From NCBI RefSeq assembly GCF_013167455.1, contig NZ_CP038328.1: DNA of 64,000 nt; one strand, written 5' to 3'. The stretch comes from Escherichia coli O157:H7. Its GTDB lineage: Bacteria; Pseudomonadota; Gammaproteobacteria; Enterobacterales; Enterobacteriaceae. A model generated the notes under the pieces. The model was not told where the DNA came from. It saw only the letters and a list, made by a program, of their open reading frames with translations, and searched no databases. This document shows, piece after piece, positions 16,460-17,223 of the stretch (the first letter of the stretch is position 1; each line of letters begins with the position of its first letter). Both the position numbers and the translations under genes were made by a program.

Positions 16460-16546
16460 ATGAAGATCGTAAAGGCTGAAGTTTTTGTTACCTGTCCGGG
16501 GCGTAATTTCGTCACATTAAAAATCACCACTGAGGACGGTATTACA
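16460..16546 (+). pseudogene. rspA: rspA 5' remnant (first 29 codons of the starvation-sensing dehydratase gene), truncated by the prophage junction
   Basis: ATG at 16460 encodes [29 protein letters not shown], the recalled RspA N-terminus; the frame then hits a stop and the antisense strand continues into integrase-like coding sequence. Confidence 0.7.
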
Positions 16547-17223
16547 CCATAAATTTTTGGCTTGCTGATTTCTGCACGCATCGATAAGACGGATGAATTC
16601 CTCCCGCGAAAGAGGATCCGGAATGGTTCTTGATTCCTTTAATGGCGAGATCCCCTTAAACGGGTTATCTGCCAGGTAACCGTTATCAACACCAAACTGG
16701 AACACGGCGTTAAGATTTGTCATGTAATTATTTACAGTTACAGCCGATCTCCCTGGTTGTGTAACAATATAGTTACTTTTGGGGATCTGGTATCCAGTCA
16801 GTAGCTCTTTACGAACCTCCAGTAATTTTTCTTTATTAATCGATGAGGCAAGATTTTTTTCACCGATTATGCTCAGGATATTTTTGATGACGGCACGGTA
16901 TGTGTTGAGTGATGTTTTTGCGACTTCAGTTTCTTTCAGTGCCAGAAATTTTTCAGCCAGTTCTTTTATGGTTAAATCTTGTCGGGCCTCACCAAATTTT
17001 TCCAGATTGCGTGAGGAGGGAAACTGTTTTGCATAGTCGAAAACACCAGTTTTTATTGCGTAACAAACAGAGGCGCGTAGCTCACCTGCAACGCGCCTGT
17101 TTTTTGCTGTGTCAGGAACCCCAGGTTTTCCCTGACTCTTACGCCTTTATAAACAAACCAGATACGTAATTTCCCTCCATGGTTTTCCACGCCTGTCGGA
17201 TATTTCATTTCAACTTCTCTCAT
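16547..17223 (-). pseudogene. Phage integrase remnant: N-terminal half only, internally frameshifted, C-terminal catalytic domain absent
   Basis: Reverse translation from 17223 gives MREVEMKYPTGVENHGGKLRIWFVYKGVRVRENLG then a stop; a second frame (16517..16723) gives integrase-like ...DNPFKGISPLKESRTIPDPLSREEFIRLIDAC...; no tyrosine-recombinase catalytic region precedes the rspA stub. Confidence 0.6.

Follow-up and report, generated by a model that had tools for sequence, protein, structure and literature searches.

The junction between the host gene rspA and an antisense phage integrase gene (int) at the left end of an Escherichia coli O157:H7 prophage is very probably the scar of a single RecA-independent illegitimate deletion, which took place in the ancestor of typical O157:H7 after int had acquired a frameshift. 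We define here the breakpoints, a 2-bp microhomology at the joint, the co-deletion of attL and half of int, and the order of frameshift and deletion. Coordinates refer to the 64-kb stretch of O157:H7 DNA that was analysed (64,000 nucleotides, hereafter the window) unless another sequence is named.

A 2,964-bp deletion between rspA and int

In strain 3PT, in the sorbitol-fermenting O157 strain 493/89 and in O55:H7 CB9615, the locus is arranged as ynfA–rspA–rspB–(187 bp)–int (426 amino acids)–xis–exo and is colinear with the window on both sides. Alignment of the window with 493/89 revealed a clean 2,964-bp gap, the alignments ending at position 6746 of the 493/89 locus (L007) and resuming at position 9709. 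The missing DNA comprises rspA nt 87–1215, an 11-bp spacer, rspB, the 187-bp rspB–int interval and int codons 223–426; the first 93 nt of ydfJ and the attL core also lie within it. We located the joint by a three-way comparison of the window, 3PT rspA and 3PT int, in which the BLAST alignments overlap by 2 nt. The features around the joint are as follows.

16255–16459, plus strand: ynfA–rspA intergenic DNA and rspA 5′ region, kept intact (ynfA ends at 16254)
16460–16545, plus strand: rspA remnant, nt 1–86 (residues 1–29), its translation being residues 1–29 of full-length RspA
16544–16545, no strand: deletion junction with 2-bp AC microhomology, rspA nt 85–86 being the complement of int nt 665–666
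16546–17208, minus strand: integrase remnant, codons 1–222 of 426 (Sakai intR pseudogene ECs_5736), from tblastn, DNA alignment and Pfam
17119–17122, minus strand: frameshift site, CCCCC to CCCC (five G to four on the coding strand), from alignment to 3PT int and translation
17243–17494, minus strand: intact excisionase gene, 83 amino acids (WP_000005552.1, also in strain 138, 3PT, 493/89, TR01 and PV15-279)
17567–20038, minus strand: RecE/ExoVIII-like exonuclease gene, 823 amino acids (NCBIfam exodeoxyribonuclease VIII, under the curated cut-off)

The joint has the marks of an illegitimate-recombination scar: the flanks are colinear, the breakpoints fall in unrelated open reading frames, the two sides overlap by 2 bp, and no insertion sequence (IS) or long repeat is present. 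Given the 2-bp overlap and the lack of an IS or repeat, we infer ordinary illegitimate recombination, which may have proceeded by replication slippage or by end-joining at the 2-bp homology. No part of the deleted 2.96-kb segment was found elsewhere in the 64-kb window by blastn or tblastn. The original prediction had called this junction a deletion and not an att core, and the 2,964-bp gap against three colinear relatives, with the core in the lost segment, bears it out.

Only the 5′ end of rspA remains

The host flank is colinear and 99.9% identical with 493/89, CB9615 and PV15-279 up to 16545. An ATG at 16460 opens the rspA stub, whose 29 residues are the RspA N-terminus of strain 3PT. DNA identity with rspA ends at 16545, which is rspA nt 86 and two bases into codon 29. 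This codon reads ACA in the window versus ACG in the relatives, Thr either way, and is followed by a single Pro codon and a TAA at 16550–16552, giving a 30-residue stub. PGAP labels the rspA remnant an incomplete pseudogene in strain 138 and others. An rspAB operon consists of full-length rspA (404 amino acids) followed by rspB (339 amino acids); the window holds rspA nt 1–86 only, and no rspB sequence was detected within its 64 kb by blastn or tblastn. A simple sigma-70 consensus scan of positions 16200–17600 returned no promoter-like site.

Most of rspA and probably rspB had been predicted to be lost, rspA after a match of 29 codons to its N-terminus, and the operon to be inactivated. Each of these points holds: residues 1–29 are identical to full-length RspA, rspA is cut to its 30-residue stub and rspB is gone. 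Where Zhou et al. 2010 (PMC2806823) treat this locus, rspAB is likewise present in O55:H7 CB9615 and lost in O157:H7. Their account views the same event from the host side, with rspAB adjoining the prophage in CB9615 and absent in O157:H7, and in that part it deals in presence and absence only.

The integrase remnant carries one frameshift and lacks the catalytic domain

Searching the window by tblastn with the intact 426-residue 3PT integrase recovered amino acids 1–30 at 100% identity and, in a second alignment, amino acids 30–228 at 98%. The second alignment overshoots the junction by a few codons, and true integrase sequence stops at codon 222. At the DNA level, the sole difference from intact 3PT int is one 1-base gap. 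From codon 31 on, the lost base puts translation out of frame, and a premature stop follows at 17053.

Pfam places Arm-DNA-bind_2 at amino acids 4–67 of the intact integrase and Phage_integrase (PF00589) at amino acids 201–392, with individually weak SAM-like core-binding matches (E about 0.002–0.006) at amino acids 80–191. The remnant retains both N-terminal domains (arm-binding and core-binding), but its catalytic domain breaks off after ~22 residues. The N-terminal domains persist as DNA for amino acids 1–222 and are not translatable as a single protein. The first conserved catalytic Arg (VYTGVRPGE) lies at about amino acid 230, as read from the 3PT sequence; because int in the window ends at codon 222, essentially all catalytic residues are gone. 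The remnant thus has neither the uninterrupted reading frame nor the catalytic Arg/Lys/His/Tyr domain of a functional tyrosine integrase, and searches of the 64-kb window by tblastn and blastn yielded no C-terminal half of int elsewhere.

The earlier reading, that rspA runs straight into an antisense integrase lacking its catalytic C-terminal domain, is upheld: the minus strand from 16544/16546 to 17208 is integrase, of which amino acids 1–222 are kept and the domain at 201–392 is not. Where at least one frameshift had been claimed, alignment to 3PT int gives exactly one, at codon 31. The claimed extent was right in its minus-strand course from the junction and wrong in its start at 17223, as int is annotated in relatives from the ATG at 17208 (MKYPTG...).

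The attachment site lies in the lost segment

We derived the att core from four sequences: attB (EC2, in which rspB is followed by intact ydfJ), attL (493/89), attR (where Sakai Sp11 meets ydfJ′) and the boundary between Sp12 and Sp11 in Sakai. It reads TGAATT(T)ATGGATTTC and lies at about ydfJ codon 31, ~40 bp past the int stop and within the deleted segment. An attL would carry this core with the ydfJ 5′ end on its host side and the int 3′ end on its phage side; the window instead joins rspA codon 29 to int codon 222. A search with the 15-nt core, allowing as many as 3 mismatches, did not hit the junction. Since the real core lies inside the deleted segment, we conclude that the junction is not an att site.

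For this to be a genuine attachment junction, the phage would have had to integrate in rspA, using either a secondary site or an attP inside int, the latter giving a split integrase like those of SSV1 and Mx8. The direct meeting of int and host coding sequence without a spacer is what such an event would produce, but the window lacks the other half of int, the real att core of this family is in ydfJ, Sakai and 2017C-4109 retain the attR partner at ydfJ′, and sister lineages carry the same int intact beside intact rspAB. We therefore regard this explanation as extremely unlikely. The likeness to SSV1 and Mx8, in which int coding sequence also abuts host sequence, is superficial: in those elements the second half of int lies at the far end of the prophage and attP falls within int, neither of which applies to the window. 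Because neither the missing int half nor the deleted DNA recurs anywhere in the window, a split integrase or an inversion is excluded at least locally.

One short match to the core does lie at the deletion junction.

16547–16555, minus strand: 9-mer AATTTATGG, identical to part of the attB/attL core and abutting the int breakpoint (2 copies in the window versus 0.63 expected)

Its position beside the breakpoint is probably due to chance. The 9-mer would also fit a deletion initiated by an enzyme, in which Int cut at a core-like site in its own gene, or an IS629 was excised imprecisely via the O157 IS-excision enhancer, before the broken end was joined to rspA. Copies of IS629/IS1203 in or beside int in PV15-279, F3113 and TR01, and the independent deletions over attL in at least three other lineages, point the same way. 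However, identity at the crossover is limited to 2 bp, nothing core-like was seen by eye on the rspA side, and the 15-nt core is unmatched at the junction even at the 3-mismatch limit. Moreover, the codon-31 frameshift in int is older than the deletion, so that a different prophage would have had to supply Int. The junction bears no IS remnant, IS1203 in PV15-279 sits at about int nt 740 versus a breakpoint at nt 666, and the other deletions, of 2,995 bp and about 5 kb, have unrelated endpoints. On balance an enzyme-initiated deletion appears improbable, and we retain illegitimate recombination at the 2-bp overlap.

The same attachment site and integrase family are found in K-12 Qin (intQ pseudogene, split ydfJ), a grounded, defective prophage that carries dicB/DicF. 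K-12 records match window positions 16544–17088 at 98.5% identity and keep the C-terminal int half at 99.4%. In Qin, unlike the window, the integrase match stops at 17088, the int start and xis are missing, and attL and rspAB are intact; the int-start end of Qin is presumably occupied by IS2. Across 5,426 complete E. coli genomes, the int 3′ half with attL is present in 2,979, indicating that the ydfJ site is occupied by a prophage or remnant of the Qin/Sp12 family in ~55%.

The prophage is probably unable to excise

The window keeps xis intact; attL is deleted, Int is truncated and the right flank belongs to a different attachment site (uspF–ompN). Because attL and Int are lost and the two flanks derive from different sites, the prophage is doubly unable to excise. 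Where Asadulghani et al. 2009 (PMC2669165) deal with Sp12, its int is listed as disrupted and excision is predicted to be absent, and their experiments gave no excision, replication or packaging; rspA, rspB and ydfJ go unmentioned there and the breakpoint is not described. We infer, with this published experimental support, that the prophage is unable to excise by site-specific recombination and that rspAB function is abolished. The prophage had been predicted to be locked in, which agrees with the lack of attL and of a catalytic Int and with the Sp12 assays, in that part of the paper, without excision.

An integrase with 91% nucleotide identity to the lost catalytic half lies at another locus in some O157:H7 genomes (Z1836, 2985736–2986333) and in 28RC1. 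It might provide a related Int in trans, which would be useless here without attL.

The junction is clonal and the frameshift is older

To score the junction in the same 5,426 complete genomes, we built a 52-nt probe such that neither side alone could seed a match. The junction 52-mer was present in 294 genomes, all at 100% identity. Among the 60 junction matches listed, which include Sakai, EDL933 and Xuzhou21, all records with a stated serotype are O157 or O157:H7. A segment that begins at rspA nt 89 and reaches almost to the int stop, spanning the rspA 3′ part, rspB and the attL region, was found in 5,083 of the 5,426 genomes. Taken as totals, these counts leave room for all 294 junction carriers to lack this segment; together with the literature they suggest that rspB is absent from each carrier.

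An artefact of sequencing or assembly is a general possibility for any such joint, and TR01 has a suspicious variant of it (see below), but the identical 52-nt junction comes from 294 complete genomes of many separate projects and the chance of an artefact is negligible.

The junction is absent from O55:H7, the sorbitol-fermenting O157 strain 493/89, LSU61 and the PV15-279/F3113 group. These are also the intact-rspA genomes with the most similar flank, from which it follows that the deletion is specific to the typical O157:H7 lineage. Of these relatives, 493/89 and LSU61 presumably branch earlier in Feng's stepwise model, and we take PV15-279 to belong to the beta-glucuronidase-positive group. 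We conclude that the junction has been inherited clonally.

Among the 300 genomes with the frameshift allele is PV15-279, in which rspAB is intact and the Sp12-like int is otherwise full-length and split by ISEc8. As PV15-279 has the frameshift yet keeps rspAB, the frameshift predates the deletion.

These observations suggest the following course of events. A lambdoid prophage (Sakai Sp12, at the K-12 Qin site) would have inserted into ydfJ at its 5′ end, immediately past rspA–rspB, with int beside attL. The first lesion would have been the 1-bp int frameshift at codon 31. A later loss of at least 2,964 bp would then have removed rspA nt 87–1215, rspB, the 93-nt 5′ stub of ydfJ together with the attL core, and int codons 223–426. 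The loss of rspAB may have been neutral or mildly favoured, the transporter gene of the cluster, ydfJ, having already been split by the prophage.

The ancestral layout may have been more complex

The size of 2,964 bp is a minimum estimate, because an Sp11-like prophage adjoins rspB in PV15-279 and F3113, the nearest rspAB-positive O157:H7 genomes found, with the Sp12-like prophage beyond it. The deletion could exceed it, or could have followed a rearrangement. If the ancestor had carried a tandem as in PV15-279 (rspAB–attL–Sp11-like prophage–att–Sp12), an additional prophage of >40 kb would have been removed, or excision, re-integration or recombination would have reordered the tandem. The Sp11-like prophage beside rspB in PV15-279 (L008, L013, L014) and F3113 (L016) has its int cut by IS1203. 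In PV15-279 the frameshifted Sp12-like int, split by ISEc8, is ~40 kb further on, and the tandem order is the reverse of that in Sakai. Sp12/Sp11 arrays also collapse readily, 2017C-4109 having a single hybrid and the window being itself a hybrid. Against a tandem ancestor, Sp11 persists in typical O157:H7, on the far side of Sp12, so that removal of an Sp11-like prophage would need extra steps, and int lies directly beside rspB in 493/89, O55:H7 and many other lineages. We consider a tandem ancestor unlikely and favour a deletion from the rspB–int arrangement of 493/89.

Other deletions across attL

Three further deletions over attL, in LSU61, 11PC and 2017.18.04CC, fuse rspA or rspB to prophage early genes. 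LSU61 has rspA nt 1122 joined to the exonuclease gene, the first large prophage gene past xis, with 2,995 bp lost (L015, 6782/6783). In the mink strain 11PC, rspB nt ~124 is joined to the exonuclease gene, with about 5 kb lost (L017, 5258/5259). In 2017.18.04CC (H281), as read from annotation only, int is joined to an rspB remnant. All three have the architecture of the window, with attL lost, whereas their endpoints differ. We conclude that attL has been deleted independently in three or four further lineages, without shared ancestry of these events. The similar sizes of 2,964 and 2,995 bp raised a size-constrained deletion as a candidate, which was rejected because 11PC lost about 5 kb. Many independent decay events are to be expected at the ydfJ site, as ~55% of complete genomes carry the integrase 3′ half with attL. 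That the scar reflects a process that recurs at attL, perhaps under selection or begun by an enzyme, with at least four lineages each losing all or part of int and some of rspAB, and with the 9-mer marking a break made by Int, seems to us a poor prospect compared with ordinary decay.

O157:H7 TR01 (NZ_CP033605.1) shows a variant junction, in which both ends of the 2,964-bp gap have moved by exactly 38 bp and rspA nt 1–124 is joined to int nt 1–626. In TR01 (L004, 2499–2574; window 16546–16583), 38 bp of int are swapped base for base by rspA nt 87–124. This junction was found in that genome alone. On the prophage side, frameshift included, TR01 has 0 differences from the window over 16586–19000 and 1 over 16586–24000; across at least 16 kb of host flank the two differ by 0.7%. 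Given the in-register 38-bp shift, the identical prophage side and the divergent host flank, we rejected TR01 as evidence for a hot spot: an independent deletion seems less likely than an artefact of reference-guided consensus or polishing, which we suspect, or a real in-register recombination patch, which is possible. Literature searches on the TR01 assembly, and on RspB and L-gulonate, found nothing useful.

The scar anchors a recombinant prophage

The window aligns with Sakai without gaps along 6,052 bp, with 2 mismatches (99.97% identity), and its left region is 100% identical to several O157:H7 genomes. Locus and junction are thus shared with Sakai Sp12, a lambda-like phage whose annotated left end, with the intR pseudogene ECs_5736, falls at the junction. 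The junction and an Sp12-type early region (int′–xis–exo–dicB and beyond) extend to about 36.9 kb. Past ~36.9 kb, BLAST showed the window to be colinear with neither Sakai Sp12 nor strain 138, and its late half and right flank differ from those of Sp12. The late genes are lambda-type and resemble those of Sakai Sp11 or of the rspB-proximal PV15-279 prophage.

16546–62170, no strand: prophage body anchored by the scar, Sp12-type early region to ~36.9 kb, Sp11-like lambda-type late region, three nleG
59764–61815: three nleG genes
62396–62830, minus strand: uspF
62971 onward, minus strand: ompN (porin), from NCBIfam

The right flank, uspF–ompN, is the flank of the ttcA (Rac/Sp10) site and not ydfJ′. 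This implies that the prophage is a recombinant with ends from two attachment sites, and that it arose through collapse of tandem prophages and inversion between prophages. Related arrangements are seen elsewhere: in 2017C-4109 Sp12 and Sp11 have collapsed into a hybrid bounded by rspA′ and ydfJ′, and in ECP19-598 and G5295 the Sp11 late region adjoins uspF. Among the related genomes compared, none was a complete genome colinear with the entire window. A candidate integrase fragment at 63.0–63.9 kb was rejected, the reading frame there being the porin gene ompN according to NCBIfam.

Rfam matches above gathering score in the prophage comprise the DicF sRNA (20682–20733, minus strand), a sok antitoxin RNA beside hokD (27579–27753, plus strand), three tRNAs (30669–30915, plus strand; annotated Ile, Arg and Arg in strain 138) and the STnc100 sRNA (31692–31864, plus strand).

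The regulator gene rspR is kept with ydfZ, ydfI and a ydfJ 3′ fragment at the far end of the prophage array (Sakai ECs_2149, L012 885–1571; 2017C-4109, L018 175–861). RspR in O157:H7 is an orphan regulator whose target operon, rspAB, has been deleted.

Implications

The products of rspAB are presumably a mannonate-dehydratase-family enzyme and a Zn-dependent dehydrogenase. Huisman and Kolter reportedly linked the operon to homoserine-lactone starvation signalling in 1994, and Wichelecki and colleagues are said to have linked it to L-gulonate catabolism in 2014. Disruption of Sp12 int, the failure of Sp12 to excise and the loss of rspAB in O157:H7 are already known from the relevant parts of earlier work (PMC2669165, PMC2806823), and the scar is a case of ordinary prophage decay. 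Our analysis defines the rspAB loss at the sequence level; it leaves the current view of prophage decay unchanged and its practical value is modest. The junction, between rspA nt 86 and int nt 664–666, is a clean clonal marker for typical O157:H7. Its structure also gives a mechanistic reason why Sp12, with its dicB/DicF and nleG effector cargo, is fixed in the chromosome.
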